Of a stretch of 64,000 nucleotides of DNA, positions 22,795 to 64,000 are shown one piece after another. The stretch's first letter is position 1, and each line of letters begins with the position of its first letter. Source of the DNA: Chara braunii (taxonomy: Eukaryota > Plantae > Charophyceae). Location of the stretch: positions 1,249,521-1,313,520 of the forward strand of contig BFEA01000028.1 in the NCBI GenBank assembly GCA_003427395.1. Direction: 5' to 3'. The notes below the pieces were generated by a model, which saw only the letters and a list, made by a program, of their open reading frames with translations, had not been told where the DNA came from and did not search any database. A program made the position numbers and the translations under genes.

Positions 22795-22826
<32 letters not shown>

Positions 22827-23303: not shown

Positions 23304-23315
23304 GGGGAAAAAAAA

Positions 23316-23698
23316 GGGAAAATTGTTCAAATGCCCCTGAAAGTTGGGGTATTTCGTCAGATACCCCTAAAAGGCACTGGTATGGCGAAATGCCCCTGTG
23401 ACAATTGCGAAACTTTGCAAAATACCCCACTCGCCAATTGGACCTGTCATCTTCTGCATATACCCCTGGGCAACTTATCTATTTGCGCCGAAATGTCTGG
23501 CTGTTGGACCCTGCAGACGGCAGAAAAAACGCACCAGCACCTCTAGCATGGGGCTAGGGCATATGGAGAATTTGCGAATGACTGGGACAGGGGAAGATGC
23601 AACAGTTGAGGGCATTTCCGCAAACCGCTGTGTTTTAGGGGCATCTAACGAAATACCCAACTTTTAGGGGTATTTCTACTATTCAATAATTATCTCCC
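23316..23698. mobile_element. Mutator-like MITE
   Basis: Long imperfect TIRs beginning GGGAAAATTG...AAAT(A/G)CCCCT.AAAGTTGGG; oligo-A flanks. Confidence 0.75.
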
Positions 23699-24324
23699 CC
23701 CCCCCAAAAAAAACACATGCAAGTGGCATTCAGGAGGTCTTAGGTTCAATCCCCAGCGGCCTCATGTACCTTCCTGGGCAAGCTTGGTGCCTGCCACCTA
23801 GAGATAGGCCGTTTGTCCTCCGGAGCGGCATTGAGCAGAGTCTGCTGATGTTCGTAGGGGGACGGGACCGGAGGGGAGGCACAGCAACTGGCCCATTGAA
23901 GAAGCTCGGTCCTGATGCTACCGGCTGACCCCTGGCCGGTATCATCCACCTGCAGGTAGGGCGCAGCCCCCCGATGTTCCCTCGTTGGAGGCTTGAACTC
24001 GGGCTGGCTGCTACAGGGTTCCCCGTAATACTATAATGATAAATAAAAAGGGCCTGGAAGGCCATCCTGTCCAGATTTGACAGGCAATTGAATTGGTTGG
24101 GCCTCCTGATTTTGCCAATTACAAACTTCCAACCGGGTAGTACCTGTTTTTTTTGCAGTTTCGAACTGCTCTGGGCCCAAACTTGCAGTCCACTGTTATT
24201 CCTGCGAAATGGAGACTCCACAACCGCACCTGGGCGTAGTTATTTCAAAAAAGTATCTGCAAAACAGACCCAACAGCATCCGTTTTTTTTGAAAGGGCAA
24301 CGGCCTTCTGATTATGTTGTTAAT

Positions 24325-24392
24325 CTGACTGTATGTGGAATCGAACTTGGGTCTCTATATCAACAGTTCGTGTGTGTACCAACGGAGCTAGG
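24325..24392 (-). mobile_element. tRNA-derived pseudogene or SINE head
   Basis: Minus strand A-box-like TAGCTCCGTTGG and B-box GTTCGATTCC at tRNA-like spacing; stems degenerate. Confidence 0.55.
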
Positions 24393-24537
24393 CCCGTTGG
24401 TACAGCCTCGGTTTGGGCAATCGCTGCAGCATGTGTGTAACTGAGAGTCAATACATTGTACCTGTTCCTGGTGGCTGGAAGGTACACACATAGAACCGTT
24501 GATAAACGGATGCAGTGTGCAAACCCTGTTCAATAAA

Positions 24538-36303: not shown

Positions 36304-38319
36304 AGTGTGCCTCTTTCATGAACTTTCTGTTATTCCTTGTTAGCTATTGAAAAAATAAAAGGAGGGAAAAAAAAGGGAAACTATGTGGTGTCGACCCTGT
36401 CGAGCGCATCAGTCCTGCAGGGGGACCCTCATGGCCGCGTCACGTAGGATTTGTGAAGAACTTCTTCGCAGTGGAGCTTTCCGCCGCTTCGGCCAAGTGC
36501 GCCAACCATACCTCTCGTGAACCCCTAGGATAGGATAGGTCGCGCGAGGTACAACTTACCTTTGCCCAAGGGGCTGTCACCACCCTTGAACAGGCGTATC
36601 CCCACCGAGCTGCCGAACCACATGCGAAAGCTACTCAGTTGCAATCGCAGAGGTGGCCCAGCCGAGGGCATTTCTTATACGCTGTAGCATAGGGGGTATG
36701 CGCGGTCGCACGCCTTAATTGGACCCATACGCGAGTCGTCGCTCTGGGGGCTGCTGTCCCAAGTGCGACTCGGCGTCGCTCTACTAGGACGGTCCATCTA
36801 ACCACGTGATACACACTTCAAAATAAAAAATCAAGTTACACACACAAAACACGCCTAGTCCTTTTTGGTATCCAACCCACACCTTTACTAACATAGAAAG
36901 TTGTTGGGCGTCACACGCGAGGCTCAACTAAATGTCATGAGGATGCAGACTTTGTCATATCGACTAGCCATGCATAAATATGTAAGCAGTCGCAAAAATG
37001 GCGTACTATGTAGTACCGATAATCATGTGGCCCTCAAAGGTGTTGAGGGTCGCTTTCGACACTCAAGTGTCGACTGACACCCGCCTTAAGGGGACAATCT
37101 CTCGACGTTGGACAATCGCTAATGTGGTTGCGAGTCCTACCCTCTTTTGCATCCTGCGCGGATGAGAGATAGGCGGGCCTTGACCCATTGTAGCAGTTGA
37201 ACACCTCTAACCTTGAAAATGGGGTTCCACCTTTGAAGGTTTGAAAACAGGGCAAGGAATTTGACTTTGACAGTTGCTACGGACCTTAACGTCCAACCAT
37301 GAAACTTGTTTGAAAAGAAAATCTTATTTTTTCTCGATACAATCCGTTTCACCAACACGCACGGTCATATTGGACCACACAGATATACCATATACAAACA
37401 AAGGGGTTATAGAAACACGAGGAAATCATTTTCGCAATTACAGTGTGACTCCCTTCATAAATATATTTATGATCGCAGACAAAGTCAAATTTGAAACTCC
37501 ACTCACAAAACATATCTGCAATTACATCAATGATTCAACATTGGCAAACCACGCACTACATGGGTTCAACTTCAACCACTCTCTGCACTCATACCCCTTT
37601 ACCTTATCCATACAAGCCTCAACATTTGTTTAAAAATAAAACACTCAATACATTTTAAAATTGTTATTCAATAAAAGTCGAGGTAAAAACCCAAAGAAAC
37701 AATTCAACCCACAGAGGGCTAAGACCTTTAGGATGAGTGGCGAGAATGAGTGAGAGTTTAGTCATAAATCGACAAATCGACAACCGATTTGTTATCAAAA
37801 CGTAACAAAACATGATCCTTGTAGAATCAAGTTGAAACCCGTCAGATTTTGAATCGATATGGTCGAAAAAAATACCTATATCCCAACACAGACCAATTAT
37901 CAAACTAAATTTTAAGTGTATGGAGAATAAACCTCATATCATATCTGACACAAAAATTTATTAAGACTAACTTTATATCTACCTTACAACGGGGGCAAGA
38001 AGAATAAGGAAAGTTTTGGCAACATCTTCCATATACAAGATTGATTGTCAAGATTTTTCCTATCAAAATATAATCTAACTCCGCAAAGCTTAAAATTTTT
38101 AGCAGCATTCCCTAGAGAGAAAGTGTCTTTCCATAATTTATACTTGACTGAATATAAAATTTGAAACCATTTTTAACTCTAGAGAGATAAATTTTGTCTA
38201 ACTCTTTGAATTACTAAAAATTTTAGCAGCATCTCCCTTAGAGAAGTAGACTTCCCATATTTATAAGAAAAGTAGACTTCCCATATTTATACTAAGTTGG
38301 ATATGAACACAAAATAAAA

Positions 38320-38850
38320 CTTTTTTTTTTTTTTTTGTTAAACAATGCTCCAATTTATTTGTGAGAATCAACACGGTCGCGAACCAGGGCCAAAATCTTT
38401 TTTTAGAATACAAAATGAGCTACCGGGGCCATTACCCGACTTCGGCTAAGAACAATTGAAAAAATCGAAAAACTAAGAAGCATTCATGGTCCACTACTCA
38501 AACACTACCAAGTCATTAGAATGTGTGTTAAAAAGCTTTCCAACCATTAATCAAATAGGTGAAACATATTCAATCCACCTACGACCACTACCAGCATGGC
38601 TGTTTTCAGCACGAACCGAAGCTCTTCCAAACCTCATGCTCCCGTCAGGCTAGGTTGAAGAGTTGCATTACCTTGCTTCAGCACCGGCCAACATTGCTCT
38701 ACTTACAACCCCCGATGACAACCGAGACTGCCCCTGCAAACAACCCCCCAGATCTCTCTACCAGGTCTCATACCCATTAAGCTAGGTCACAGAGTCACTT
38801 GGCTCTGGCTCCGGCCAGCGTTGCTCCAACATCCGTCTTCAAGGGGCATC
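38320..38850 (-). mobile_element. Poly(A)-tailed retroposon inserted in unit A
   Basis: T-run at 38320-38337; CCGGGGCCATTACCCGACTTCGG is the inverse of 45436-45458; absent from unit B. Confidence 0.65.
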
Positions 38851-41701
38851 AAATTTTTAAAATCTCGTAGCAAGATCACAGATGAATTTAAGTTCTTGCT
38901 AAGATAAAATTCAAGTTTTTGCTAAGACAAAATTCAATTAACTACTTAGATTTGCATAAATTTTGGTTGCACTCCCTCTAGAGAAGGGTCATTTCAAAAT
39001 TTGATCAAAACTAAATACAAAATTTGAAAATAATTATGACTTCGCAAAGTTAAATTTTGTCTAACACCTTAATCTGGTAAAAATTCTGGTAGCACCTCCC
39101 GTAGAAAAGAAGGTTTTCCAGATTCTTACTAAGCCAGATATGAAACTCAGACAAAAGTTAAATTTTGAAAAGTCAAAATTTGATTAACTCCTTGGTTTTG
39201 CAAAAATTTAGACAGCACTTCCCTTAGCGAAAGTGATTTTCTAAAATTTATATAAAGCCAAGTATGAAACATAAGCTTAACAAAAAAAATGCAGAAATTG
39301 AACTAACTCCTATGACTCCAGCCCGTGACAAACATTTAAAGCAACTACCTACCAAACTTAATACTCAAACTGAATAGAGCTTACACTCCACCACATGCAA
39401 GTTCATACCACAATTGGTAAGTACTCTTACAACAGCCAAATCATTCAGCTTAGAGCCAATGCCCGGTCCTTTAGAAAACAAGCAATAAACATAGCACTGA
39501 GTCATTCAGCTTAGAAACCATGCTCAACCTTTAGGAGTCTGTAAACCGTATGCAAAATCGTCTTACTCCCACCTTCCCCCAGTTCATCTCTTAATCTGAT
39601 TTCAATCAGAACAAAAGAAGTTGAAATTAACACATGCATTCCTTTCAATTAATATGATTTACTTATGAAAAGAACACAAAATCATCGAGGAACATATGCA
39701 TATCTCGCAGACAAACCAGAGAGATGTAATAGAAGGGATATAGTGGGTTCACACAGGCAAAAGGAGGTATACCTGACAGTTCTCTGCCTCCAAAATCTCA
39801 CCTAGATTCTGGCAGAGCTCCCACAATCGGTGGGGCGAACCTCCCACAAAGGCCTTGACATAGATTACGAGTTTCAATTCCGCTTGCCGCCTTCCTCTCT
39901 CAACCCATAGATTAGACTGAGAGTAAGAAAGGCAGAAAGAAAGATATTAAGTCGCTCAAATACAAGAAAGGTGTGCTCAGATTCGCGTGAGAGGGCCTTG
40001 AAATCTTGACGCGCATGAGGGTCCCACAATGGTAGCTAGTTTGCAGTGAAGATGGTCCAACCTCAATTGATACACAAGTACACTGCAATCTGACAACCCT
40101 CCAAGGCGTAATAGTAACCCCATTTGCAGTTTTGACGACTCCCTCAAGTCGTGACGGCGCTCCTTCTGACCAAACCGCTACTACGCAGCCTACCTCGTGC
40201 TCTATTCAAATTGCATGAGGAAACAGAGTATAACGTAGCAAAAACACAGTGTGCACTGTGAATGCACAGTCCGTGGTTCAGAACTACACACGTTGATGCT
40301 ATTGTAGCGAAGTGAAAACAACAATCATGGTTCAAAACCCATGGACACAATGCCAGCAACGCGCTGTAACATAAGATAGTTTCTCCCCTTTGCGAAAAAG
40401 TATAGCAAGCTACTCCAATATTGCAGCCTTTTTGAACTGTGCGGAGCAGCAGCAGTTCCAAAAGGAGTATCAACAGTTCTCCCAAATCCTCACTCGTAGC
40501 ACAACCTGGACTTATCTAATGGCCGACCAGATTCGTTCACAAACCGGAATGAGGCACTGGTTCGTTATGATGGAGGTTAGTAACAAGAAGCCCAACTATG
40601 AATGAAGCGCGGGTAACGAGCGAGGCCAGATCGTGAGTGCATAGCGTAGATCACAATCGAGGCCTAGTGTCAGACCCACGATCAATGCGCACAAGTAGTA
40701 GAGTACTGACTTCGAGTTGACCATCACGGTGAGGAATAAGACCGGGGTGGGAATGAGTAAGCAATTGTGACTGTGATTCGGTCGACGGGCTCGAGAGTTA
40801 AGTTGGGTGACAAGCGAGGTGGCTAAATCAACCACGGAGACAAGCTCCCTACGACTTCGACGAGGATAACTACGTTGAGCATCATGATGGTTTTGACTAG
40901 CATAATGCCATAATGATTTCAACAGTATGACGCTCTCCCTCTACCGTGTGTACACCATGAGAATGACTCTTCCGCTGGAATACGGAAAGATGCTCTGCCA
41001 CCTAAGCACTCCTATTCCCTGGGGTATGTAGTACTACCCTCTGACCCTTCTCTCCTTTGGATCCTATCTTTCTACTCCTTCTTCACCCCTTTAGCTGCTC
41101 ACACTCCCCTTCCTGTCTCCCTTTTCAGCCTTTATTCCCACGGTATGTATCTTGTCGCATGTGTGGCCAGATTTCAACAGTTATGAGAAGGCCGACTGGG
41201 AAGATGACAACAGTCGGACGGGAGATTGTCCCAAAGCGCGCACAGCGAAAGGTGGTAACCTCGACTAACCAATGCTACTACCTTGACGGACTCAAAGAAG
41301 ACTAGCACGACGACGAATGCACGGTGAACAGCGCGGATGGCAGCGATCCTGATGAGGTACCGGGATGATCATAACATCAACTACAAATCAGCACAAGTCG
41401 AAACCGCAGCACCTTCGGACGATTGCTCCAAAATTACAATGCCAAGCAGTGCTCACCCCAAACGGGATTACACAACTATAGCGGGCAAAAGCGCTGGCAC
41501 GGAGAGGGTGGTCTCGAGTAGCATGAAAGTGACCACACTCGCAGGCCAAAGCACCGTGCCACTACTCACCGAATGTGCAAGACGAAGGAGAACCTTCCGC
41601 AAGGACATGGGAAGACACATCGCGAGGAACAGACCTGCAAAGAAGTCTCGGTGTGAGTATAGGCTAAGGAGTTGTCAGATGCAAATATCACCACACGCGC
41701 C

Positions 41702-41703
<2 letters not shown>

Positions 41704-41759
<56 letters not shown>
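41704..41759. repeat. (GA)n microsatellite
   Basis: Direct reading. Confidence 0.98.
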
Positions 41760-41761
<2 letters not shown>

Positions 41762-43488
41762 TTTCATCGAAAGGGTGAGCAAAAAGGAAATGGCTCTGTC
41801 GGCAGAATATGGAAATATACATTGCTTTTCAGCCATGGTCACTAGAGAGAGGCTACTTCCATTGATAGGATGCGCAAAATCAGAATGAATCTTCCACTAG
41901 AACCCGAAAGTATTCCTTGCTCTTCAGTCACGCGCGCAGTAACATAGAGAGGAGTTACTTCCATCGATAGGATACGCAAAATTGGAATGAATATTCCGCT
42001 AGAACCCGGAAGTATTCGTTGCCACTCCGAAACCGCTCCTCCCGTCGCAGCTCCTGCTGTTTACTCCGCCAAATCCCCCTCTCAAACCCAAAATCCGGCG
42101 TGCCCCTTCTCTTCGCAACGCTCCGAAACCCCGAGGTAGCCACTTGGTTTGTCCAAATCGGTCGAGAATAACCGAGATACATTGAATTCTTCATCGCCCT
42201 TCCTTCTCTCTGACTTTTCGACTCTCACGCGCAGTCCTTCTTCTCCTAACTCTAATCCTACTAACTTTCTACCCACAGATTCGTATTCGCCAGCCCAAGA
42301 AACCCCTATGGGCCTCGTTCGACACCACTAGAAAACCCTTACATGTAAGGGTTTCATCGTTCCACCTCTCCCTAATGACGAAAAAAAAAATGCGAAATTT
42401 GTTTTCACATTCGCGGGCGTAAGGGCGAGCCCTACAAAAATGAGGGCTCCCCAACCAAAACGGACGCAAACGCAAGAACGGTCGTGGAGGTGACTTGAAA
42501 GTAGGGGTGGCGCCCTTACTTTCCACGGGAAAACTGCCGACATTTTTGTTTTTTTTTTTCCTCAGGTGTTTCCTTCCCGTTCCTGGTCCAAACGCTGGGT
42601 TGTCCGATACACCATGGGACGGCGGTTCCACGATAGTCTCCAACGGGCAGCGCCGTGGCCCGGCTGTGGCCATGCGGTACCTCCGGCTAGCCGTTTCGGC
42701 TTGCGTGTGGAGACGACTGTTGCGGGGGTCACCGCGGAGGCGGGCGCGCGAGTGTCGTTGGTGGCGTCTGTTTCGAATTGGGTGGTATGCGCTGCCCGTC
42801 GCCTGCTGGGCCTTTTCCGCGAGCTGCTATATTGCACTCCTCTGCTACCGCGCTTTGTCGTCATCGAAAGGTAGCAGATCTGTGTGTCATGTTTGGCTGC
42901 AGGCGCGCATGGCTGACATGGTGAGGAAGCTAGCTCTCCTAATTTGTCCTGATTGGGGCAGTGGTGCTGCTCATAGCTCTGCACGCGTGCCACCTGGCTG
43001 GTGCTCGCATCCAGCGTGGAAGGAGGAAGGGGTTGAAGACGCTTCGACAGGGCGCATCGGGGAGCAAAAGGATGGGGGACGAATACAGTCGGGGTTGTGA
43101 GGGTTTTGGGATGGGGAGGAGGGCGTACGGGGGAGGGAGTGGAATGCAACACAATCTCCACCACAAGTTTGATCCAAATTTGTATTCGCATCTCCTCCCC
43201 CTTTTACTTCCACCGAGAGCCTAGCGGCATATGGCAATCCCATCTGCCATAGTCGCTCTTCCGCATCGCAAGCTCTCTTCCCTGCCTTCATGCGCACATG
43301 GCACGACTTGGAGTCCAGGTTCATCTGCAGCTCCAACAGTCCCGCTATCCAAAGGGAGTTTCGAGGTGAACCCGCTGCTAGACGGTTCGTTTAGTCTTTC
43401 GCCACTATGTGCAAGTCCGACGAACGGCCCGTACACTAGCGTGGCTGTGACCTCCGCCAAAGTTTTCCTCTGGCCTCGCCCTACTCAG

Positions 43489-43560
43489 GTGCCACCCTGC
43501 GCAGTGGGCTGTGCTAATCTTCTATTTATCATCCCAATTCTACCGGATGTCTCGAAGGAC
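43489..43560 (-). pseudogene. U6: U6-derived segment in unit A
   Basis: Minus strand GTCCTTCGAGACATCCGGTAGAATTGGGATGATAAATAGAAGATTAGCAC...CTGCGCAGGGTGGCAC. Confidence 0.75.
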
Positions 43561-43796
43561 GAACGATTGCGCGTCAGTATCGCTGCAAGCCTTCCCCAGC
43601 GCCCCCTCCCTGCCGCCGCCCTACTCAAGCATAGCTCAGTCCCAAAGGGCACACTCACACTCAAACCTCTCACCACAGATCGAGCCCGCTGGCTGGTGCA
43701 TCCGAGGTAAGTACCCACCGGCTCGGTGCATGCAAGCCCCCTATGTCCGCTTCGAGTCGGACAGAGGAGTTTCGCTTAGCACTCTGAAGTCAACTG

Positions 43797-43850
43797 GACC
43801 ATACTAATCTTACCTGAATCGCCCCAATTTTAACGATTGTCCCGAGGGGC
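43797..43850 (-). pseudogene. U6: U6-derived 5' segment in unit A
   Basis: Minus strand GCCCCTCGGGACAATCGTTAAAATTGGGGCGATTCAGGTAAGATTAGTATGGTC. Confidence 0.6.
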
Positions 43851-44785
43851 AAACGGCAGTCCCATGAGTGGGATTGCACATGATTTCATCTGAGATGTGA
43901 TCTACGCCTCAATAGTTCATAGGTGCACCAGCCCCGCCAGGCTCTAGGGCATCAACACCTCAAATCCGGCACCGAAATTGGTACCGTCCATGAGCGAAGA
44001 TGGGACAAGAACAAAAGGAGCCAAAATAAAATAAAATAGAAATAAAAATAAATCATGAGAAAGTGAGGAAAGGGAGAAACCTTTGGCACCCTCCTTTGGT
44101 CCTGCCAATCGGGCCCATGGTTGGGTTTGGTAAAAAAAACAAGGGGAATAACCTCGTCAGGCCCTAAATCCCCTTGGTTCCTCGATAATGCTCTAATGCT
44201 CCTGCATGGCTTTCCGTAGGCTTCAATCCCTGAATTCTCCTGATGAAAATCCGATATCGTACCCAATAGTACTAGATTCAAGGACGACACTAGCAGCCGT
44301 GCAAATCTATATAAGTAGATGATGTGCGATGCTCGCTTCTGCGAACACGTACCAAGGCCGCACCTTGGCCTACTGTCTAAATCCATGGCCGTTGGGCTCC
44401 CGCGCCTACCGCGCGGAGACCTTTGCCCACGTTCTATCCCTTCCACACTCGAATTACCACCAAAAAGTTGCACTACTATCGATGTTGTTTTCCGCATGAG
44501 CGCACGCACGTCATAGTCACATCAACAAAAAATCACTTAGTCCTAGTTTAATCAAAGTCAGAAGTTGGCCGGCAAACACGCAGGCTCTATAACATCAATT
44601 AAAAAAATCACGCGTGCCTTAAAACTGTGCCCCCCCACACTCTCTACTTTTAGTCAACCATCCAGTCAACGTAAACGAAACACAACCACGACTCGCGTGG
44701 TGTATTTAAAATTCCGAATCAAACTCTTTTTTTGTCACTTGCAAAAACCAGGGCAGATACCCTTATAAGGGTATTCGCACCAACA

Positions 44786-44978
44786 ACGGGAGTTGCAAAA
44801 ACGAGTTATAATTGCACTATGGGCCAAGATACAGTTTGCAATTGCGATTCGGGCAATGTATACAACACATCTTTCTGGCCAGATAAGGTGCCCGAAGTGT
44901 GATTGCAAACTGTATTTTGCCCCATCATGATAGTGCAATTACAACTCGTTTTTGTGACTCCTGCGTAGTTATCCCCTC
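44786..44978. mobile_element. Mutator-like MITE; its left tip lies at ~36375-36388, separated by unit A
   Basis: GAGTTGCAAAAACGAGTTATAATTGCACTA is the inverse of TAGTGCAATTACAACTCGTTTTTGTGACTC; a second family member lies at ~57427-57640. Confidence 0.75.
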
Positions 44979-45014
44979 CGAAAAAGCAAAACAAAAAATA
45001 AGAATACCTTAGAG

Positions 45015-45540: not shown

Positions 45541-48500
45541 ATTCACGCTTTCCATCGATCCACCCGGCGGCTCATTCCTCTCCTCTCGAAGGATGTAAAC
45601 TGGAACTTCGTCTTGTCTTAATTGATCGAAAATGGGCAACTCTTCCGACACTCTTCACTTCTCTCATTTTTATCATCTTGTAAGTAGGCAATGTTTACAG
45701 ACGTTTCACTTTGGAAGATCTTCGCTCATCTTTTCGACCGGTCGTTGTGTATCTCTTCCAGAATTTTGTTGATGTCACGTGGAGTATATCTCCATCATCT
45801 GAGCTCAGAAGAACTTCTTCCGGAACTGTTCCATTAGTTTCTGGGGTAATCTCCCACCCCGAGGAACATCGAAATCAAAGGATACGTTGAAGTAATCTCG
45901 GGAACTACTTAGATTTGGTCATTTTTTGTTTGTGAACGGTGGATGTTTGTGTATCGCCCATGTGGACTGAGCCAGCTGAACCATCGAAAGGACAGCTCCC
46001 CAAGCCCCCTCAGTCATGGCCCTTCCCGTATAACAAGGAGATGACGTGTGCCTTTGAGTGGGACGTACGAGAAGTTGTCGCCAAGATAGGCGACCCTTAT
46101 TACTTTTCATCGGAAGCCCGCTGTTCCGGATTTGTAAATGCTGGTTTTGTGATAGTTGATACTCACTTTTCCCCTTATTCTATTTTACTTCTCCTCAACG
46201 GGTTGATTGTCGTCCCGAGGCCGATTCTTGCACCCCACTGGCCTTGTACTTGTGCAGCGATTGTCGCCACACAGAGCGCTTTCAGGCCAACGGATTCCAC
46301 TATAGACACGTGGCGAGGAGGAATACAAGCAAAAAGCAGTAAGACTGCAACCCTCTGACTCAGATTCAGAGCTTTTTGCTGAGCTTCATCGGTCCCTTGT
46401 GCGAAACCGAAATCCGATGTGCGTCCCCCCTCTCTTTTGACGCAAAAAGAGGCGTTGCCCCGCGTGCATCAAAGTTCAAAGATACTTTTTGGACTAAGTG
46501 ACAATTAAGGAAGAGCCCGCTTCCCTAACCCATCTGCCCATTGTTTGTCGCTCCATATGTGGGACCACACGGGGGATTTCAGTTTTGTCTGTATCTCCAT
46601 ACTCAATTTTCCAAAAGTCCTTGGCACACCCTATTTTGCCACTTTCTGGGCCCCTTTTTCGTGCTTACGTCACTCCGACAAAGAAACCAGAGCAGGGTGT
46701 GAGGTTGAACGTCACAACACTGTCCTCCCCCCCCCCCAAAAAAAAAGGTGTAGAATCCGCCGCTAGGCCCGCCACCATCAGCAAGTCACAACATCGAAGA
46801 AACCACCAAATATTTCGCATAACCCGACAGTAAGGAGTCATGCTAAAGTTGACTTCCATCGGTGCTGAGCACCGAAGAGGAGTCCAACCGACCAGTACGC
46901 CAGCAAATTCCTCCTACAATGGGTCGTCTGAGATGTTTTTGAGGTCTGAGGACAGCTTGCTGCCTGCCAGCATTAATTGCCCTGAAAACCCAGGGGATTA
47001 AACCACCATTACTTGGCCCATACATCGGTCGGGGGCCGTTGTCGTTAATGGCCCACAACTTCCGGGCTTCGGGGTACCAGACCTCAATGGTTGGAAGCGC
47101 CAGCTAAAACAAAGTTGAAATGACGTCATGGCGGTTCGGGAAAACTTGGTGCGCAGGGGGTCGGTTGGCTCGGCATCGATAGTTGGGCCAAGTACTGGTG
47201 GTTTAACTGCGCAAAAGAATTAGCAAGGAAGGGAGTAGCCTTTTCAGCCTTGTCGACGGGCGCCTGACAAATCTATAACCAGCTAGCGCTCCCTTCATAC
47301 AGTGTGCCTTTCTATCGGAAATCTGAAATAGAGCATCGAAAAATGACTGCTTTTTGTCATGCTAATTATCAGAAAGCATCTGAGAGCGTATCTGAGAATA
47401 ACAGCCCGGCGGACCAATTTTACACAAGACTTGACTAACTTATGGCGGGAGGTGCAGTTGGCAGTTGGTTCGAGAAGGGATTGAAGAGTATGGTGATGGG
47501 CCCCAGACACCAGTCTCCAGGGGGCGATCGGAGAACTGCTGCGACAACCATCCACCTCTACCAGTCATTCTCTTCTCTGCCGTGCAGGGGGTTCCTCTTA
47601 CCCTCAGCCAAACCAATCAAGATCTATCAGGGTGCCCATTAGGAGAGGAAAAAGATCAAGAAATTCAGAGGGAGGGGGAAGCAGGTTATTGTATCCAATT
47701 GCAGTCCAGTCGCTGAAGCGTAGCCGGTAGTTTTTTTGGGTGGCATCCAACCGTTGCTGGTCTGAAATTACCTGGGTTTCCATCCCAGCCACCCGACAAT
47801 CAAAGCTTGAAAAGGTACCGGCTGAACACGTTGATCCTACCTGGGCCTAATTTGGAACGGGCCCAATATACCACTGTCCAAACCAGGTTCAAGGCTAACC
47901 TAGCCACGGTAACTGCCCAATTCATGACAAATCAGCCTGTGCCTAGTCCTAATGCGGGAAATTCCCAGGTCCCAAATCAACAAACACATCAAACAGAACA
48001 ATAGCCTTGGGTAAGCTAGGGGAAGGACAATAGGATGTGTCCGTGGGTGCTGGCCTGCCCTGCTTAGGTAATCCTGCTGGGTTGGGTCTGTAGAAGATTG
48101 CATGAGCCTGGCGTCTGAAGTTCCCGTACGGCAAGGTTTGTCTGCTTCAGCTTCCATCAGTGTTGGGAGGTTGGCCCAGCCTTGGTGCTTATCACTGTTG
48201 TCTGGTTCAAGTTGCCCTCAATACTGATAGGGTGATGGTCCTGAGTGTTGGTCACACTGAGGGCATACTCACGCGAGGACCAAAAGACTTAAAATCCCAA
48301 AATTTGAGTCATTTTTCGGGTCACACTAGAGAGGCTCGCGACCCAAATGCCTTAAACGATGACCCTTCTGTCAGCGGCCTGCGGGGCCGCGGGCGTAACC
48401 TTTTTTATACCACCTCCGAAGGTGGTCTCAAATTACCTTTCATTTTTTTTCTTTTTACGTTTGCGAATTGAAGAGAAACGTAGACGAAGAAAACAGCCCG

Positions 48501-50769
48501 CCAAACAACTGAACGTGCGACCAGGAACATTTACGTTGTAGATAAGGCCCAAGCGTTATACAAGGGTGAAAAAAAAACAATCCATCTTTTCGTTTCGTCC
48601 TCCCCCGTGTGATCCGGTGCACGTGCCCTAAAGGCAAAGTGTTAGGGTTGTGACTTCGTCCTTTCTGGACGAGGGCCGCCCGTGTCACCACACGGGAACC
48701 AAATGCCTAAAAAAAACAGAACCAAATGCCTCAAATTTTTGAGACTTTTGGTCCCCGTTGTCGAGCGCATCGGTCCCACAGGGGGATCCTCCCGGCCGCG
48801 TCACACAGGATTTTGCAGGACTTCGTCGTAGAGCGCGGGTTGCCGCTCCGACCGAGTGCGCCAGCCGTACCTCTCGCGAGCCCCTACGACAGGATAGGGT
48901 CACACGAGGCACGTCTTACCTCCACCCGCGGGAGCTGTCACCATCCCTTGGGTGGGCATATCCCCGCCGAAATACCGAACCACATGCGAAATCTTTTCGT
49001 ATACAATCGCAGAGGTGGCCCGACCGAGGGCGTTTCTCGTTCGTTGTAGCATAGGGGGTACGCGTGGTCAACGCCCCTCAATCGGACCCGCATGTGAATC
49101 GATCCATTGGGAGGTTAAGGTCTCAAACACGACTCTTCGTCGGTCGACTAGGACGCATCCTACATACCACGTGTTATACCACAACACTCACACACACGGA
49201 AGGACACAAACAACATAACAACACAATAACACTCCTAGTCCCTTCAGTGTCCGACCCATAACCTTTTAACATGGAAATCGGTTAGGCGTTGTGCATGAGA
49301 CTTAAGATAAAATCACGCGGGCGCAGGGCTTTCTCATATCGGCTAGCCATGTAAGCATACGCAAGCAGTCGTTACGATGGAGTACTGTATAGTACCTAAA
49401 ATCATGCGACCCTCAATGATCTCGATGTCACATTTTGACACTTAAGTATCGGTGGACACGCGCCTTGAGGGGTCAATCTCTCGACGCTAGACAACCGCCA
49501 AGGCGGTTGATCACCACACCCTCTTCTGCACCCTGTGGAGAGTGGGTGGTACACGGGTTCATACTTGTGGTGGCAATCGTCTCTTATTGCGCTAGAGACC
49601 AACTCCACCATCCAGGGCGTGGAGAGAACTCAAGGGGTTTGACTTTGACGGTTGTCACGAACTATAACGTTCAACTATAAAATTCTAAAAAGCAAAAAGA
49701 TAAAAGGGGAATGTCCCTTTTCTCTCAACGCATAATCTGTTTAACCTTTGCGCACGGTCACAATAGGTCGCGCGAACATCCAACGCGTATGTATGTACGT
49801 ATATATAGAAGGTTATAAATATATGACGATCACTTCTCACAATCACAACGGGACTCCTCTCAACCATATATACTTAAGTGATCGCAGGCAGTCGAATCCA
49901 AAGTTTGAACCACCAAACATACCTGTTATCACAGCAAAGATTCAACCAAAAATTCATGCACTACACGGGGTCAACTTCAACTATTCTTTGCGTTCACACC
50001 CCCCGCTTTAGCCATACAAACCTCACTCTTTGTGCAACTCTCAAAATAAAATACTCAGCATCTTTATTAAACGGTCATTCAAATAAAGTCCAGGTAAAAA
50101 CACAACGAAACAAATCTAACCACAGGGCTAAAGCCTTTAGGTTGAGTGGCAAAAGTGGTTTGGAGTTGAGTCGAAAACCAACGAATCGGCAACCGACCTG
50201 TTATCATCATAGTAGAAAATAATCTAACTCTCCAAATTCTGCAAAATTTCGGCAGCGCTTCCCGTAGGAAAAATGTCTTTTCAAAATTTTTAGGTGTCCA
50301 AAAATGACTAACTCTTTCAGATCTCTAAAATTTCGGCAACGCTTCCCGTAGGAACAGGAGACTGCCAAGATTTATACAAAGTTAAAAATGCAAGGACAAA
50401 TTTTAAACACAACTATACTTGGGACCAACTTCTGACATTTACTTGATAGTTAGAACCAGAGATAGTTTGCACGATCCCTTATTGAAGACGACATCGTGAG
50501 CTAACACCGATCCTAACTCCTAGTAAGGTCAGTCATATCTTATCCCAAGTTTCTCTTTCATCATCCATCTCTCCTACCTATAGCTCCAGCACTTAGCGAG
50601 CACCTAAAGCAACTAACCTACTGAAAGAGAAGTCCCCAGAGATAGCCTCAAAAACATACACATGTGAGTATAACAATATCTCTCGCCAACCCTCAGGTTC
50701 CTTTCCATGTCGCATAGTTTGTTAAAAAAACCTTGTTATTCTCTTTTACCCTTCCTTACATACGACATA

Positions 50770-52390
50770 GGATTAGCCAACCCAACTTATGGATGTGACT
50801 GACCTGTCAGTTTATATGACTAAGTCACACCAACTTATGGTGCCCTAGTCTGGTAGCACAAGTATACGTAGGGCATAGGATCAAATCACACCAACTTATG
50901 GTGTGACCATTTTCTCCCTAGACGATTTACATAAGGCGTATGACCGGGCCGCACCAACTTATGGTGAGGCTAGTCAGCCTGAACGCTCGGCATACACAAA
51001 GAACCGAACCTCCTCAACTTATGAGGGGTCAGCCTTCGCTTGAACAAACGACAAAAGGCATGACTAGAACACACCAACTTATGATGCGTCTGGCCAGCCC
51101 AAACGGTGACATATGGCGTAGAACCAGGCTACCCAACTTATGAGTAGTCCAACCCAGCCTAGACAAAACCACATGCACGAATGACCAAACAACCCACAAC
51201 TTATGCGTTCGCCCAACCTTCGCAATACAACCATGTTCAACGAATAAACATAAGGCATAAAACTCACCACACCAACTTATGATGTGATTGGCCTCCGCCT
51301 GAACGAGTGACATAAGGCGTATGACCGGGCCGCACCAACTTATCGTGAGGCTGGTCAGCCTAAACTTTCGGCATATACAAATAACAAAGCCGCCTCAACT
51401 TATGAAGGGCTCAGCCTCTGCCTAAATAAATGACGAAAGACATATGACCATGATACACTAACTTATGATGTACCTAGCCAGCCCACACGATGACATATAG
51501 CGTAGAACTAGGCTACTCAACTTATGAGTAGTCTAGCCCGCCTAAACAAGCAACAAGCCCGTGTGACTGAACAGCCTGCAACTTATGTGTTCGCTCAGCC
51601 TCCGCAGCACAACTACATTCAATAAGTAGAGTCACAAGTTCTTTCTTTCTTTAGACGAGTGGTCAAGTCACCTCAACTTATGAGGCTCCCCATCCAAACA
51701 TCAGCTTATGTTTAGAAAGAGAAATAGCCAAGTTTTATATTATCTCTCTGCCCTTTGTGTTATCAGGGGCATAGGACCAACTACCCAACTTATGGATGAG
51801 TCAACCTGCCCAAAGTTACCACTTAATTTTATACTCTGAATCTTATTTTCTCCTCTGCTTTATCTGCTACCGGCTTATATGGTAGATCTCCCAACTTATG
51901 ACATTAAACCTGCCAATGATATACATAGTATATAGTTATATCAGATTGTATACTCAAGTTCCACTTATGTTCGCGGCTCATGACTTGATCACACCAACTT
52001 ATGGTGTGACTAGCCTGCCAAAACAAGTAAACATTAGTTATAGGATTGATCCACACCAACTTATGGTGGGGTTAGTTTCTGCCTAGACAATCGACATAAG
52101 GCGTATGACCGGGCTGCACCAACTTATGGTGAGGCTGGTCAGCCTGAACATTTGACATACACAAAGAACTGAACCACCTCAACTTATGAGGGGTCCAACC
52201 TTTGCCTGAACAAAACGACGAAAGGCATATAACTAAACCACACCAACTTATGGTGTGGCTAGTCAGCCCATACAATGACATATAAGGTAGAACCAGGCTA
52301 CTCAACTTATGAGTAGTCTAGCTCCACCTAAACAAGCAACATGTGCGTGTGGCTGAACAACCCACAACTTATTCGTTCGCTCAGCCTCCA
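50770..52390 (-). repeat. Array of 24 stem-loops with a conserved CAACTTATG core, ~60-bp period and 6-unit higher-order repeat
   Basis: Cores at 50783, 50831, 50892, 50955, 51015, 51075, 51134, 51197, 51273, 51336, 51396, 51459, 51518, 51579, 51674, 51786, 51892, 51995, 52057, 52120, 52180, 52244, 52303, 52365. Confidence 0.93.
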
Positions 52391-54876
52391 CAACAAAACA
52401 ACAAATAATGTCACAATTTCATTTTGTCTGAATTCCCACAGATAATCTTACCTTGTCATACATACTTGCCAATTTTACCTTTCAGATTATGTCATGAACT
52501 CAAAACAAACAAAAACAATTAACTTTCTCAGTCATACTTACAGACACACAATAACAAAGGGTAATACAGTTTAAGGGAAGGGATCACACACGTAAAATGA
52601 GCATTATACCTTAGTGTTCTCTGCCTCCAGAACCTCACCTGGGCTCCAGCAGAGCTCCCTCAATCGATGGGTGGACCTCCCACAAGGTCTTGCTGCGGTC
52701 CTACAGGTTGCAATCCCGCCTGCCGCCTTCCTCTCGTAACCTTAGACCAAACTTAGAGTAAGAAGGGCAGAAGGAGGGGTTTCAAACACTCGAGATACAA
52801 GTGAGGGTCAACTCAACTTACGTGAGAGGGCCTTGTAATCTTCAAACGTCTAAGGGCCCCGCAATGGCAGCCAACGACGCAACTCAGATGATCAAGAACA
52901 CGGTCAGAACGCAGAGTAACACTCCCCTGATGGCTCTTCAACCCGCAACAGTGACCTCGTTGTAGAGTCCGTTCACTCCTCCAATGCTACAATGGCTCGA
53001 GGTAGTGGACGGCGGGAATCATAGCAAGTGAATATAGTATGGGGCAGACTCGGCGAAGTGCCGCAGGATACGGCAAAACTCAACAAAGCCTCAACAAGAT
53101 GCAACATTGATTCTCGGTAGGTCCAACTGTCCTATGGATCTCAGCTAGTCGCACCGAAAATACGAGGGAACACAATGATGCATTCCGAACGCATGGGGCA
53201 GCGCACAGTGGGTGCACAACGAAAACGTGGGTGTACTCAGCAAACCATGGCTAGCACAACACAACACAACAATGCCACACAGACAAAGCAAGACTCAACA
53301 ATCGAGCCCAACAGTGTGATAGCCGTATGCATAACGTCTCGTCAAGTTACATTGTACACAACAATGTGAGGCAAGGCCCAGCAGCAACGAAAGCACAACA
53401 GGATACGGGGTGTACAGCGAACCAACGCCACGCACCAACTAGCATGGTGAACTACAACGGATGTTGTGCAACAACATTAGACATCAGATAGCCTCGTCCC
53501 TCCTCATTAGACTGTCACAGAGGCAGCAACATCCCTCGAAAGCACGACGGTATCGTCGGACTCGACTTCAGCATACCGACCGAAGATCGATTTGGTAATG
53601 CTTCCAGACCGGATTGTGACTGAAACAGCCTCAGTGTAGGCAAACCTTGACCACGCAAGCCACCGCCTTAGCCAGGAGCAGTTGGTTTGGAAACGCCAAG
53701 TTACGAGTATAAGAAAAAATCACGCCTTGACTGAAGTGACAAGTCAAAATAGGATCACGACGAACATGCCACTACGACCTTGTAGGAGAACCCCACAACC
53801 AATATGGCAAAGTACGAGTGATCATTACTACTGTAAGCACGGACGAGATGGTTTTTTTTGGCGGTGAAAACGAATCTTATTCCCTTCGTCTACACTCCTC
53901 TGCATTCCAAATGTGCAAAATGAGAATGAATCCTCCACTAGATCAGGACCAGATGCAGTGTCAGGTAAGCATCATCACTACACCGAGCACATCAAGCAAC
54001 TTATAGACGATGAGCACCCTGGTGAACAGTACGGCCAGCAAAGCGAGCGTAAGAGATGCGAAATCATGCAACGCTCAGAAGAAGAGTACTTCTGCGACGG
54101 TGATCACACAGTCGTTGGTGGTATGATCTCGGCGGTAGCAGGTAGTAGGACCGCGATGATGGTAAGTGAGAAGGCGAATCAGCAGAACGACAGATGCAGT
54201 GCTAACTATCGTGATCCGTACAACCACTACTACGATTGACACGATTATCATTACGATCCGATCATAACAAGGCTCGTAACAAACACAAGTCGGCCCTTGC
54301 TCCGCTCCTATCAGACGAGCAAAACGAGAATGAATCTCCCGTTAGAATACGGGAAGATGCATAGTGTCAGGACCTTGCTGCTGCGTCCGCATTCTGACAA
54401 AATGAGGACGAATCTACCACTACAATTTTCCATTTAAACTTCCTGACCAGCCACCTGATCTTGACCGGTGTTGTCCGCAATTACGCCTAAGACCGTGTTG
54501 CGATTGTTGCGCTGAAGACGATAGCCGGGGTGGTTTTGACGGAAGTAGTTTGCTCAGTGCAGCATAGAGGTAAGGACCATGATCGGCGTGGAGGAAGGTT
54601 ACGAGCATGACGCAGAGCGCGACCTTGATGATGACGAAGATCCCTAACAGAGGACAACCTTGATGATGACAAGCGTGATAGCGAGCTGGAACCCGTTGTG
54701 ATAGACAACGCTCCATAGCTTCACCGAATATGCAAATGAGAATGAATCTCCCGCTAGAAATCGGGAAGATTCATCGCGAGTCAAAGTCGCTCATTGTCAT
54801 GCCTGCTATTGGTCAAAAAAAAGAGTGGGTCTTTCGTTAGACCCCAACCGGACGCACACACAGGTGAATCCCTCCT

Positions 54877-55099
<223 letters not shown>

Positions 55100-55377
55100 G
55101 CGTAGGCGCGCGTCCAAAGAGTGTTTACCAAAGCGTTCTTGATGACAACGGCCGGCACGTGGAACACTTGCACAGTGAACGACGAACACGCTGGGGGCAG
55201 ACTCCACATTGAGGTACGTTCCCTCTTTCCCTTTCACTCACTCTGCATCTCCATTCCTCTTCTCCTTCGTCAACTCCTTTGTCATCCTCGTCTACTGGAC
55301 CGCGCTGTGCGATCTCACAAACACTCTAACCTGCGGACCGTACATACACACGCAAAGGGACACTAAAAAGAAAAATG

Positions 55378-55469
55378 AAACCGTTTCTTGATTTATACAT
55401 ATTCTCTCCGTTCAGGTTTACACTAATCTCCTTGGTATCGTTCCAATTTCACCGGATGTCCCGAAGGAC
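55378..55469 (-). pseudogene. U6: U6-derived segment in unit B, near full length and followed by T-runs
   Basis: Minus strand GTCCTTCGGGACATCCGGTGAAATTGGAACGATACCAAGGAGATTAGTG...ATAAATCAAGAAACGGTTTCATTTTT. Confidence 0.8.
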
Positions 55470-56280
55470 TACGGCCTCGTGACAGCCTTAAGCTATCTTC
55501 ATCGGGCTGATCGGGCCCAGACAGTGTTTTCCGGTCCTATTCACTCGGTGCCATAGTCCTAACTCAGGTCTGTACTTCAATAGTTCATGGGTGTACCAAC
55601 TGAGCTAAACCTATTGGTACCTTTGCCAGCTCTGGAACCAGCGCCTGGGCCGTGTCCCAAATTGGAACCAAAAGGTATATAAGAATAAGTAAAAACAAAA
55701 CAAAAATAAAATAAAACAGCAGAACGGGGAGGGGTTTCATGTGACCAACGATACACAGCCTCTGCGCTAGTGCCTGTTGGTCCTCGCCCCGCCCAGATAT
55801 AGTTCACCGTCTTATGGGTCCCTGCAAGCAAGCTCACACTCATACCTCTCACTTCTCAAATCAGGCTCAGTTTAGTGGGCGGTGTATCCCCTGGCCACAA
55901 TTGCCCATGCCTTTCCACCACTCCGCGGGTCCTGGAGGCAGTAGCAAATGTTTAAATGGAGACTGCGAGGACCGAAGCGGAGAAGGGTTCCGTGCACACA
56001 GTTGTACACAGTCAGTGTTGCTGCTGTAGCCTCTGCCCTGGTCCCCCACCCAGGCATAGTCCACCATTTCATGGGTCCCAGCGGGGACACTCACACTCAA
56101 ACCTCTCACAACAAAACGTGTTTGGCGGATGGTGCACCCACGGAGGGTCCCCGCCACTCAGGTTTCTTCCGCCTCGTGAGCCAGTCACCCACCGGCTCGC
56201 ATGTACGTTGACCCCTTGGCCCACGTCCCGGGCTAGGCAGAAATAGAGAGACTTTCTCATCCCTCGAAGTGAACAGCCAA

Positions 56281-56328
56281 GCTAATCTCCTTTGTATCGC
56301 TCCAATTTTAACGGATGTCTCGAAGGAC
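56281..56328 (-). pseudogene. U6: U6-derived 5' segment in unit B
   Basis: Minus strand GTCCTTCGAGACATCCGTTAAAATTGGAGCGATACAAAGGAGATTAGC. Confidence 0.82.
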
Positions 56329-57394
56329 CTAGGCCTGTACTTTTCAACAGTTTCCGGGTGCACCAATTGTGCTACGCCCGCAGGTCCCCGCACACAACCC
56401 CAGTACTAATATTGGTGCCACATCCCAGAATCAGGACTGACAACTAAAAATAATTAAAGAAAAATAAAAATAAAACTAAAACTAAAAATACGAACATCGG
56501 GGACTAGTGCTTTGGGGAGGGAGACTGTCGGTGCCGCCTCTCGGTTCCGTCAACCGGGCCCATGGATGGACCAGCAACAAAACCAAGGGGGATAGCCCCG
56601 TCGGGCCCTCAACCCCCTAGCATCTTCAACAGCTGCAATGATCCATCGCCGCCGGTCGCTGCCCTCGATCCCCGTACCTCTACTTTGAAAGTCCAACACC
56701 ATGACCAATAATATTAGGCCCAAGGCTGACCTTAGCATTCGCGAACACCTATGTAAGTGGGTACCATGCAGTGTGCGGGTCCACTGAAGCATTCCAAAGC
56801 CACACCCCAGTCTATCAACTAAGTCCACGATCGTCAACCTCCTGCGTCCATGGCGCGGAGGTCCCTACTCGCGTTCTATTTTCTCTCGCATGCTGTAATC
56901 ACCGCCCAAAAGCAAACATTACTGCCTAATGACATCTTCCGTACGAGCGCACACGCACCATGGTCAATTCAACATAGAGAAAAACCCTTCCTAGTTTTAA
57001 TCAAAAAAATCAAAAGTTTGTCGGCAGGAACGCCGACTCTATGACATCAAAATAAGAATCATCACGCGTGCCTCAAAATTGCACGCCCACACACTCTCTG
57101 CTTTCAGTCAACCATCCAGTCAGCGTGAAACACAACCACGACTTCGCACGGTGTACTCCAATTTTGAACAAAACTTATTTTTTGTCACTTGCAAAAACCA
57201 GGAAGGATACCCTTGTAAGGGTATTCGCGCCGACACCGTGTGAGTATGCCCTGAGGTAGGATAGTAGAGGCAGGGGATGCGCTGGGAGTATTAACGTGGG
57301 GATGGGTAGGGTAGGTGCCCTATCCTGTTAGGATAACTATTGGCTGCCGCTACTAGCAATCTCTGCGGGTCTGGTCCTTGGCCTCTACAACACC

Positions 57395-57640
57395 CTGGGC
57401 CAAGATACAGTTTGCAATTGCATTATGGGGCAACTTTAGTAGAGTCACAAAACGAGTTATAATTCCACTATGGGCCAAGATACAGTTTGCAATTGCATTA
57501 TGGGGCAAGATACAGTTTGCAATTGCACTTTGGGCACCCTACCTAGCTAGAAAGCCGAGTTGTATGCATTGCCCCAACTGCAATTTGAAACTGTATCTTG
57601 ACGCATAGTACAATTATAACTCATTTTTATGACTAACTAG
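57395..57640. mobile_element. Mutator-like MITE with internal duplications
   Basis: GGGCCAAGATACAGTTTGCAATTGC repeated; same family as 44786-44978. Confidence 0.7.
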
Positions 57641-60600: not shown

Positions 60601-61000
60601 AACACATCAGCACCAGGACTCGAGAAGCTTGGAAGCGGATGAAAAGTGACCTTCTCGAGGAGAAGACCCTACTGCTAAGCAAGCAATCCGCGACTCCTAC
60701 GCACAGATTTCGCAGGATCCAAACAGAATATTCTCTGAACTGGATGCCACCCTCAACATCATTTGGAAACCATGGAGGAACACGGAACCCAGATGGCAAA
60801 GGAGATCTTTCTCCGAATTCCAAGTTCCTTACCTCCGACCCAACTTTGTCCTCCTCGCGCCTCCGCAGCCATAACAGGACTGAGACTACCCACCCCCGTC
60901 CCTCCCCATCTTCCCCCCCCTGCCCGCCTTTCCCCCTTCTCCCCCTTGTCCCCCCCCCCTCTCTCTCTTCCCCAACTGCCTGCTGGGGATAACGGGGACA
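57650..61000 (+). mobile_element. Decayed, 5'-truncated L1-clade LINE ORF2 (RT and zf-RVT)
   Basis: KTPGIDSFP, LYKKGD...NYRPITLL, QTGFVPNRNIQDN, IDFEKAYD, VRQGHPIAPLLF, LFANDL (degenerate FADD) and CAYC...EHYMLAC; several frameshifts and stops. Confidence 0.93.
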
Positions 61001-63890: not shown

Positions 63891-64000
63891 CGTCGATGCA
63901 CCAGTCTTGAAATGCAAATAAGAAAAATATGAAAAAAAATGCATCTTTCCATGTTGTAGGGGAAGATTCATTCTCGTTTTGCACCTTTGAAGAGTAGTGC

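Follow-up and report, generated by a model that had tools for sequence, protein, structure and literature searches.

In a window of 64,000 nucleotides from Chara braunii (contig BFEA01000028.1), two repeat units of about 8.4 kb, A and B, are probably solo LTRs of a very large Ty3/gypsy retrotransposon with a Phygy-like integrase, a reading to which we give a probability of about 0.6. Each is a complete insertion that begins with TG, ends in CA and is bordered by 4-bp target duplications, apparently decayed in A. A new finding is that both carry two U6 snRNA 5' pieces together with LSU rRNA pieces, mostly in the sense of a donor-like splice site; the target duplication of A and the high copy number likewise go beyond the original prediction.

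Two complete insertions

The ends of B, TGTCG...CGACA, and a CCGT duplication were part of the original prediction, and CCGT indeed flanks the unit on both sides. That the duplication measures exactly 4 bp follows from empty sites: the host repeat at 48240-48320 has an inverted paralog in which four bases stand at this spot, and loose ends behind 48758 run on as 57240 onward in four of four sequencing runs (24 and 34 contigs; 10 and 11 reads). The left end of A is probably 36389 and not 36398, which is preceded by a 9-bp repeat of the terminus. Counted from 36389, the flanks of A are GTGG and ACGG, each one transition off GCGG; GCGG is the empty site seen in RNA loose ends at 44787 (240 and 314) and is backed by the host repeat's second arm, which indicates a decayed target duplication. 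The units lie in different host repeats, each with its own duplication, and both have TGTNR ends with an imperfect terminal inverted repeat of ~5-11 bp; no long inverted repeat was found in either. Each was inserted as a whole in an integrase-type event. The predicted terminal palindrome also recurs in both (Table 1); among random 60-mers of the window, 210 of 20,000 hold such an 8-bp inverted repeat.

At the left end of B, hundreds of distinct flanks are found in the sequencing runs. Their consensus closes in ACGC, GCGC and ACGC (130 contigs, 141 contigs and 36 RNA reads), while a second class has a common CGT (70 and 97 contigs); the target site at this end is CG-centred, NCGN. No common PBS or polypurine flank appeared at this terminus, the sole end examined, in a contig test biased to unique flanks. 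Flank agreement was 0.35 and 0.35 for DNA and 0.44 for RNA. In a simulation that rests on a target preference set by eye, unrelated flanks gave 0.357 (n=130) and 0.393 (n=36), shared flanks 0.395 at 15% (n=130) and 0.42-0.48 at 20-30% (n=36).

Table 1. Features of units A and B (positions within the window)
Feature	Position	Strand	Remarks
Unit B, candidate solo LTR	48759..57235, 8,477 bp	(-), minus sense inferred	TG...CA
Unit A, diverged relative of B	36389..44785, 8,397 bp	(-)	8,388 bp without 9-bp terminal repeat 36389-36397
Target duplication of B, left	48755..48758	(.)	CCGT
Target duplication of B, right	57236..57239	(.)	CCGT
Target duplication of A, left	36385..36388	(.)	GTGG; empty site GCGG inferred
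Target duplication of A, right	44786..44789	(.)	ACGG
Conserved high-copy left arm of B, inferred U5 end	48759..50206	(-)	68.9% to A 36398-37797
Hairpin array, 24 hairpins	50774..52382	(-)	~60-bp period in ~380-bp higher-order units
Exon-like block of B, conserved, high-copy, apparently non-coding	52610..52961	(-)	up to donor AAG/GT 52610/52609
Counterpart block in A	39773..40124	(-)	up to donor CAG/GT 39773/39772
Variable low-copy middle of B	53050..55100	(.)	closes with C-run and (CT)n/(CTAT)n tract
U6 snRNA 5' piece B-b	55420..55469	(-)	from U6 position 1; E 7.4e-06
Weak inverted LSU rRNA piece, B	55937..56030	(+)	model from 1456; E 0.14 only
LSU rRNA piece, B	56079..56210	(-)	model 676-811; E 0.0013, under gathering score
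U6 snRNA 5' piece B-a	56277..56328	(-)	from U6 position 1; E 8.7e-05
Conserved right arm of B, inferred U3 start	56344..57235	(-)	66.4% to A 43909-44785
Subterminal palindrome, 8-bp arms	57207..57224	(.)	11 bp off end; A counterpart 44757-44774
LSU rRNA pieces, A	43374..43638	(-)	model 818-951 at 43374-43500, E 7e-07; model from 827 at 43638, E 0.0023
U6 5' piece A-b	43495..43560	(-)	E 2.1e-06; flanked by two LSU rRNA pieces
U6 5' piece A-a	43796..43850	(-)	E 0.062; 45/55 to U6 copy 22790-22844

Conserved ends around a variable, non-coding middle

A had been described as colinear with B but clearly diverged, and this holds for the left arm (68.9%), the block around the donor (65.8% over 547 columns) and the last ~0.9 kb (66.4%). 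The remainder, including the middle thirds, does not align. Donor block, U6 and LSU pieces follow in the same order in both units, and the total lengths are nearly equal, yet the component parts differ by ~450 bp. Summed contig depth reaches 109,000-222,000 in the left arm and 44,000-81,000 in the donor block; it is 50-93 in the middle of B and 9-15 in a single-copy bin. The units thus show mosaic conservation, with kept ends and a variable middle, in a family of high copy number and many independent insertions. One motif from the middle of B is joined to 47167-47206 in a few contigs.

As predicted, gag/pol, a PBS and an inner LTR pair were missing from scans of reading frames, proteins and repeats. 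A Pfam search of 62 ORFs returned nothing in A (9 ORFs) and no more than a low-complexity match in B (3 ORFs), the three minus frames of B read through their stops matched 0 Pfam families, and 22 Gypsy proteins gave a best E of 0.25 in A and no match in B. The units hold no integrase-like transposase, as expected for a non-autonomous copy, and no Phygy-like integrase could be linked to the family. When the first 2 kb are compared with the last 2 kb, the best direct repeat has E 0.63 in B, and A has none. No internal terminus was seen, and the PBS of a neighbouring element matched at best 9-10 of 12 positions. This neighbour is of the Ty3/gypsy type and also lies in the window; its LTR, which seems to measure 4,510 bp, bears tandem arrays towards the PBS end, and its named homologs point to Chara braunii. 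Kinship with A and B at the DNA level was rejected (0 matches). Pattern scans of metagenome, viral and prokaryote contigs gave 0 matches to either terminus.

Donor-like sites, hairpins and RNA pieces

The minus-strand donor-like sites foreseen for both units are present, CAG/GT in A and AAG/GT in B. Among the 15 of 731 splice joints and 24 of 7,053 loose ends listed, none falls at the donor. A coding exon ending at the donor was rejected: read by eye, the frame is held between A and B for ~22 codons only and changes are mostly non-silent. The 44-aa frame reaching the donor of B gave 0 matches at E<=10 among 96 candidates, a weak test. We infer that the minus strand is the sense strand, because it carries the donors of both units, all four U6 pieces and those LSU pieces that are significant, because first mates of run X5 at the block are biased (11.3 plus vs 0.91 minus; one run), and because G-U wobbles number 18 on the minus and 9 on the plus strand (p 0.06). 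Run X6 shows balanced strands at the block (45.7 vs 48).

The original prediction put the donors just upstream of the array position. The arrays themselves differ between the units. That of B consists of 60-bp hairpins confined to its subfamily, with an invariant 7-nt loop and covarying stems; that of A repeats a different motif, two copies of which are kept in B. Stem covariation in the B array concerns 89 of 144 pairs against 57.7 +/- 5.6 after shuffling (0 of 5,000 shuffles reach 89), and within a single repeat unit it has p 0.006.

The U6 pieces begin exactly at nucleotide 1 and lack gene flank, as would be expected of an RNA template. Each matches the U6 copy at 22790-22844 in 45-47 of 55 positions, and they match one another at 37-43 of 55. 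These identities are in line with the general divergence of A and B, so special conservation was rejected; the U6 and LSU pieces look neutrally decayed. Neither Rfam nor ARAGORN found a tRNA or 5S in the units, and a tRNA-like motif seen by eye beside the U6 pieces was dropped for want of support from either.

Origin of the units

Several observations make the solo-LTR reading the likeliest: the NCGN site as in Phygy, the missing long inverted repeats, the 4.5-kb array-bearing LTR in the same window, the lack of any coding relic, the conserved ends around a variable middle, and the 4-bp duplications read from empty sites. The units have what is expected of solo LTRs, namely TG...CA with a short imperfect inverted repeat, a single target duplication and neither coding sequence nor an inner LTR pair. 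Of the original prediction, whole-unit insertion stands; the left flanks yielded no junction to a PBS or gag-pol. Against this reading count the left-end flanks, which share no PBS or polypurine sequence, and the length, which lies beyond all LTRs in the publications compared. The nearly equal lengths of A and B also count against it; they match a whole Phygy element (7.7-10 kb) and would fit a whole-unit element equally.

Such an element, non-autonomous and LTR-less, would be moved as DNA, cut or copied, by a Gypsy-related integrase, either of the Ginger1 type or taken over from a Phygy-like retrotransposon, that recognises the short TG...CA ends and the subterminal palindrome. We regard this reading, in outline the alternative given in the original prediction, as rather unlikely. 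Every visible left-end flank does resemble an independent target site, but the contig test favours unique flanks. CCGT of B is a Ginger1 target, TGTNR ends are found in both units, and GingerRoot, at 3.9-12.9 kb, bears host fragments and loses its transposase. However, the inverted repeats of Ginger1 (40-270 bp) or GingerRoot (100-150 bp) are absent, Ginger1 has been described from four animals only and at low copy numbers, and most flanks close in CGC, which is NCGN but no Ginger1 site; U6 from nucleotide 1 is what an RNA template would yield. It is unlikely, and quite speculative, that a parentless LTR-like unit spreads by itself in thousands of copies, using a Gypsy-type integrase that targets CG; a solo LTR would then have become a DNA transposon that lacks terminal inverted repeats. 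Equally speculative is that it would bridge Gypsy retrotransposons and Ginger transposons as a living link, its U6 and rRNA pieces fossils of a retro past. Improbable is a collapsed retrotransposon, whose true LTR is shorter and whose coding region and inner LTR halves were lost by illegitimate deletion; some of the 8.4 kb would then be sequence that was once internal. The total length equals that of whole Phygy elements, the middle is variable, and internal regions of non-chromoviruses have tandem arrays and long non-coding stretches. Yet neither a residual direct repeat nor an internal terminus is left, the same deletion would be required twice in two 30%-diverged units, and the collapsed unit could not replicate via the LTR route although the family is abundant. 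Chance juxtaposition, nesting of unrelated repeats or segmental duplication is highly improbable: the unalignable middle thirds and the motif joined elsewhere in a few contigs would suit it, but each unit has both ends and a target duplication of its own, the two host repeats differ, the internal order is shared, and the empty sites largely refute it.

If A and B are solo LTRs, they would stem from recombination between both ends of a large Ty3/gypsy element. The right ~4 kb may be a fast-evolving U3, which would have acquired pieces of abundant cell RNAs (LSU rRNA, and U6 from its nucleotide 1) before A and B split and duplicated them afterwards, through template switching of reverse transcriptase or a LINE-made chimeric insertion. 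The transcript would begin upstream of the conserved block, and splicing from the donor of this block would remove a U5 of ~3.4-3.9 kb (and the PBS) to give the mRNA; the hairpin array would stay in unspliced genomic RNA, likely as a packaging or protein-binding signal. The complete element would exceed 22 kb, beyond common LTR-finder limits.

Comparison with known systems

The unusual length given in the original prediction is confirmed: if the units are LTRs, the size range widens from 6.5 kb (Ogre), the longest in the publications compared, to 8.4 kb. An abundant family of this type would then be invisible to published survey settings (LTR <=6 kb; in one survey 5-bp duplications only), and missing it would mean that Chara repeat content and insertion ages are misjudged. 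With U6 and LSU rRNA, the RNA classes known from LTRs, 5S and tRNA, would grow by two, and the pieces would be a source of many false U6 and rRNA matches. Literature look-ups for an earlier report of such units gave no match. If no parent element exists, the units are a new element class.

Closest in target site is Phygy, a non-chromovirus Ty3/gypsy lineage of Physcomitrella, in which all of 186 elements (100%) have a 4-bp duplication and for which, alone among plant LTR lineages, a sequence preference has been reported, NCGN (PMC6317226). It shares the 4-bp NCGN duplication and TG...CA ends with A and B, which suggests that a targeting rule seen only in moss extends back to charophyte algae. 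Whole Phygy elements, however, measure 7.7-10 kb with an interior filled by coding sequence, unlike one non-coding 8.4-kb unit; they live in a moss and use a tRNA-Trp PBS, whereas the charophyte units have no PBS seen and no RT or integrase by which to place them. Ogre, Tat and Athila (PMC6431247, PMC6317226) and Retrosat2 (PMC3485330) resemble the units in multi-kb LTRs, arrays and frequent solo LTRs, but the LTRs are smaller (Ogre 1.9-6.5 kb, Retrosat2 >3.2 kb) and the duplications are 5 bp without sequence preference.

Ginger1 (PMC2836005) shares TGTNR ends with both units and the CCGT site with B. Its targets are CCGG, CCGT and ACGG, which suits B but neither A nor the flanks in CGC, the larger class. 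Its 40-270-bp terminal inverted repeats and integrase-like transposase have no counterpart here. GingerRoot (PMC6839031) is similar in its multi-kb size and captured host pieces but has 6-bp duplications and 100-150-bp inverted repeats. Two further candidates were rejected, LARDs because two LTRs around a non-coding interior are not present, and Dada because its duplication is 6-7 bp. The TRIMs Cassandra, Helenus and Ajax (PMC10886601) likewise hold structural-RNA sequence inside the LTR, but they are <1 kb long and possess a pair of LTRs as well as PBS and PPT; their internal promoters derive from 5S or tRNA, where the units have U6 and LSU rRNA and no tRNA match. LINE-made chimeric retrocopies (PMC13174262, PMC2104539) similarly fuse pieces of abundant RNAs with U6 from its 5' end; here the mosaic sits within an integrase-inserted unit and has been inherited by both subfamilies.

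Ends and target duplications

The termini TGTCG...CGACA and the target duplication CCGT assigned to unit B in the original prediction are both present, enclosing 8,477 bp. This duplication is real and four bases long, because the host repeat has an inverted paralog with four bases at the insertion point, and because loose ends (read or contig parts diverging from the window) behind 48758 resume at 57240 onward in all four sequencing runs examined. The related unit A, described as colinear but clearly diverged, is 68.9% identical to B in the first 1.4 kb, with identities of 65.8% around the splice-donor-like site and 66.4% in the last 0.9 kb; elsewhere the two do not align. At first sight A has no duplication. 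A second TGTCGA stands 9 bp left of 36398, however, and with 36389 as the start the flanks become GTGG and ACGG, each one transition off GCGG, which RNA loose ends at 44787 (240 and 314) give as the empty site. The other arm of A's host repeat carries GCAG at the corresponding site. Rather than occurring independently, both termini are found together in 2/2 units, as is the predicted terminal palindrome (background 210/20,000).

The host repeat of A is small and palindromic (MITE-like), with the insertion in one of its arms and a second copy of the repeat 160 bp right of B; B lies in an arm of another repeat. Both insertions fall within terminal arms of small repeats.

Features of the two units and their surroundings in the window
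Feature	Position	Strand	Remark
Unit A	36389 (or 36398)-44785
Unit B	48759-57235	minus (inferred)
Host repeat of A	36370-36388, 44786-44980
Second copy of A's host repeat	57397-57628
Paralog of B's host repeat	48240-48320		inverted
Donor-like site, A	39773/39772	minus	AG|GT
Donor-like site, B	52610/52609	minus	AG|GT
Hairpin array, B	50774-52382
Internal repeat, B	55725-55852, 55978-56109
U6 copy	22744-22844	minus
Inverted repeats beside U6 copy	23082-24208
Similar stretches	24344-24403, 55561-55620		near U6 copy; upstream of U6 piece in B
~40-bp motif, inside A/B	53907-53942, 54322-54362, 54734-54774, 40961, 41883
~40-bp motif, outside A/B	63939-63990, 47167-47206
Ty3/gypsy element C	1-19622	minus	protease, RT, RNase H, integrase (Pfam)
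Inferred 5' LTR of C	15113-19622
PBS-like motif of C	15093-15109
ORF of C, 304 aa	12493-13407
ORF of C, 401 aa	11322-12527
C-like terminus	47255-47270	minus	ends GGCGCCTGACA
High depth around C-like terminus	46462-47559
Decayed LINE-type RT and zf-RVT pieces (Pfam)	57840-60990	plus
Decayed LINE-type RT and zf-RVT pieces (Pfam)	35327-35698	minus
X6 RNA on both strands, B left arm	48658-50487

Interior of the units

In line with the original reading, which recognised no gag/pol or inner LTR pair, searches of A and B returned neither protein relics nor inner direct repeats, and no DNA likeness to the neighbouring element C was found. In each unit Rfam places two pieces from the 5' end of U6, 4/4 on the minus strand and 4/4 from model position 1 (E 7.4e-06 and 8.7e-05 in B, 2.1e-06 and 0.062 in A), together with LSU rRNA pieces on the minus strand (7e-07 and 0.0023 in A, 0.0013 in B) and a weak inverted one in B (0.14), every match lying under the gathering score. 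The U6 pieces are identical at 45-47/55 positions to the U6 copy in the window. The shared U6-then-LSU order and the internal repeat of B point to one old capture, later duplicated. The pieces are probably passengers, since their pairwise decay equals the A/B divergence. The U6 copy itself, a full-length match (91.8 bits) terminating in an A-run, not a T-run, is probably a retrocopy; (CA)31 and inverted repeats lie on its flanks. A nearby stretch resembles one in B (78%, E 2e-08) and is tRNA- or SINE-like by eye, without support from Rfam.

The B array holds 24 hairpins chosen by an exact 7-nt loop, with three more loops at one mismatch and a mean ungapped flank identity of 39%. Stems covary in 89/144 pairs against 57.7 shuffled; as the monomers are related via higher-order repeats, only the test inside one repeat unit (27/42 pairs, p 0.006) is near independent. 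A has another repeated motif at this position. A ~40-bp motif recurring in the variable middles shows high depth and many RNA loose ends, and contigs connect 47206 with 53907; it could be an enhancer-like repeat or a piece of another family.

The predicted donor-like sites are real sequence features of both units, ending a conserved, high-copy, non-coding block. First mates of run X5 fall there at 11.3 on plus versus 0.91 on minus, which would mean transcripts of the minus strand if the library follows the usual stranded design; run X6 gives 45.7 versus 48. No spliced reads, the check proposed originally, occur at the donor among the matches listed, and splicing there is presumed. Over the left arm of B, X6 RNA is even on both strands (27-43 and 57-72) and X5 RNA almost absent, which we interpret as read-through or antisense transcription of family copies that varies with the sample.

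Abundance and insertion site

Summed contig depth, which is not a measure of copy number, reaches 109,000-222,000 over the left 0.6 kb of B and 44,000-81,000 over the donor block; the array has 2,000-9,500 and the stretch 53050-53781 in the B middle 50-93, against 9-15 in a single-copy bin. At 82% likeness, A 43900-44631 is rare (13-248). Copies of the family would number in the thousands. At 48754-48759, contigs with foreign flanks number at least 222 (run X1) and at least 290 (run X3) among the best 20 of 193 rows, and their consensus ends in ACGC or GCGC, or has CGT in common with B. The insertion site at this end is NCGN. Passages of Neumann et al. (PMC6317226) give NCGN, in the moss lineage Phygy, as the sole sequence preference among plant LTR lineages, with 4-bp duplications in 100% of 186 Phygy elements.

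Probable solo LTRs and rival readings

The best explanation, to which we give a probability of about 0.6, is that A and B are solo LTRs from a Gypsy family resembling Phygy, with integrase-type insertion; a recurring flank at the left end of B did not appear. U3 would then lie on the right side, with transcription beginning upstream of the donor block; an intron from the donor would span U5. Long LTRs are plausible in this genome because element C has one inferred at 4,510 bp. Movement of the whole 8.4-kb unit by an integrase is the main rival and less likely: Ginger1 DNA transposons do target CCGG or CCGT/ACGG, but their inverted repeats measure 40-270 bp (both from parts of PMC2836005), against about 5-11 bp here. 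A collapsed element is less probable still, with no inner direct repeat in either unit. The family is real, abundant, integrase-inserted and 8.4 kb long; were it not an LTR, its class would be stranger than a variant LTR.

A 5' or 3' LTR should have one recurring flank. Loose ends at the left end of B agree at 0.35 (130 contigs), 0.35 (141 contigs) and 0.44 (36 RNA reads), and a minus-strand TGG start is absent from every consensus there. Simulations gave 0.357 for unrelated flanks with target preference and 0.395 at 15% sharing (n=130), and 0.393 for unrelated flanks and 0.42-0.48 at 20-30% sharing (n=36). This speaks weakly against the LTR reading, since a multi-copy junction collapses into few short contigs while each unique flank counts once (median loose length of the contigs 216-255 bases), and oligo-dT reads sample a long RNA poorly at its 5' end. 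A small number of expressed loci, or a minority junction, could explain the RNA excess. The solo-to-full ratio reportedly goes up with LTR length (in part of PMC7251063, citing Du et al. 2012), so LTR/internal junctions would be scarce. Pattern scans for the termini in metagenome, viral and prokaryote contigs gave 0 matches.

Neighbouring repeats

The window is eukaryotic DNA rich in repeats. Of nine homologs of the RNase H region of C, seven carry the name Chara braunii (54-92% identity), which points to this species or a near relative as the host. The LTR copy of C begins at 19622, 94% to 1-1195, and the other end was placed by CA plus a TGG primer-site motif, presumably Athila-type tRNA-Asp; 46- and 50-bp arrays lie near this PBS-side end. 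The ~7 kb between LTR and gag-like ORF include two ORFs for which no Pfam match was found, and no clear polypurine tract was found ahead of the 3' LTR. The high-depth region with a terminus like C's LTR start is possibly another LTR fragment.

Comparison with known elements

Comparison further drew on parts of the sources on GingerRoot DNA transposons (PMC6839031), Dada (PMC3706591) and LINE chimeras (PMC13174262, PMC2104539). The titles and abstract openings of the papers listed describe neither this family nor an 8-kb LTR, a scope that takes in neither Repbase nor the Chara genome paper with its supplements; A and B, if LTRs, would thus be only provisionally the longest on record. In the portions cited, plant LTRs reach about 5 kb (PMC6317226), the Retrosat2 LTR exceeds 3.2 kb (PMC3485330), and surveys set a 6-kb ceiling (PMC6317226, 10.1101/835561); Ogre LTRs span 1.9-6.5 kb (PMC6431247), against 8.4 kb here. 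LTRs with 5S and tRNA pieces are known (parts of PMC10886601, with 0 occurrences of 'snRNA' and of '28S', and of PMC10946416), whereas A and B carry pieces of U6 and LSU rRNA.
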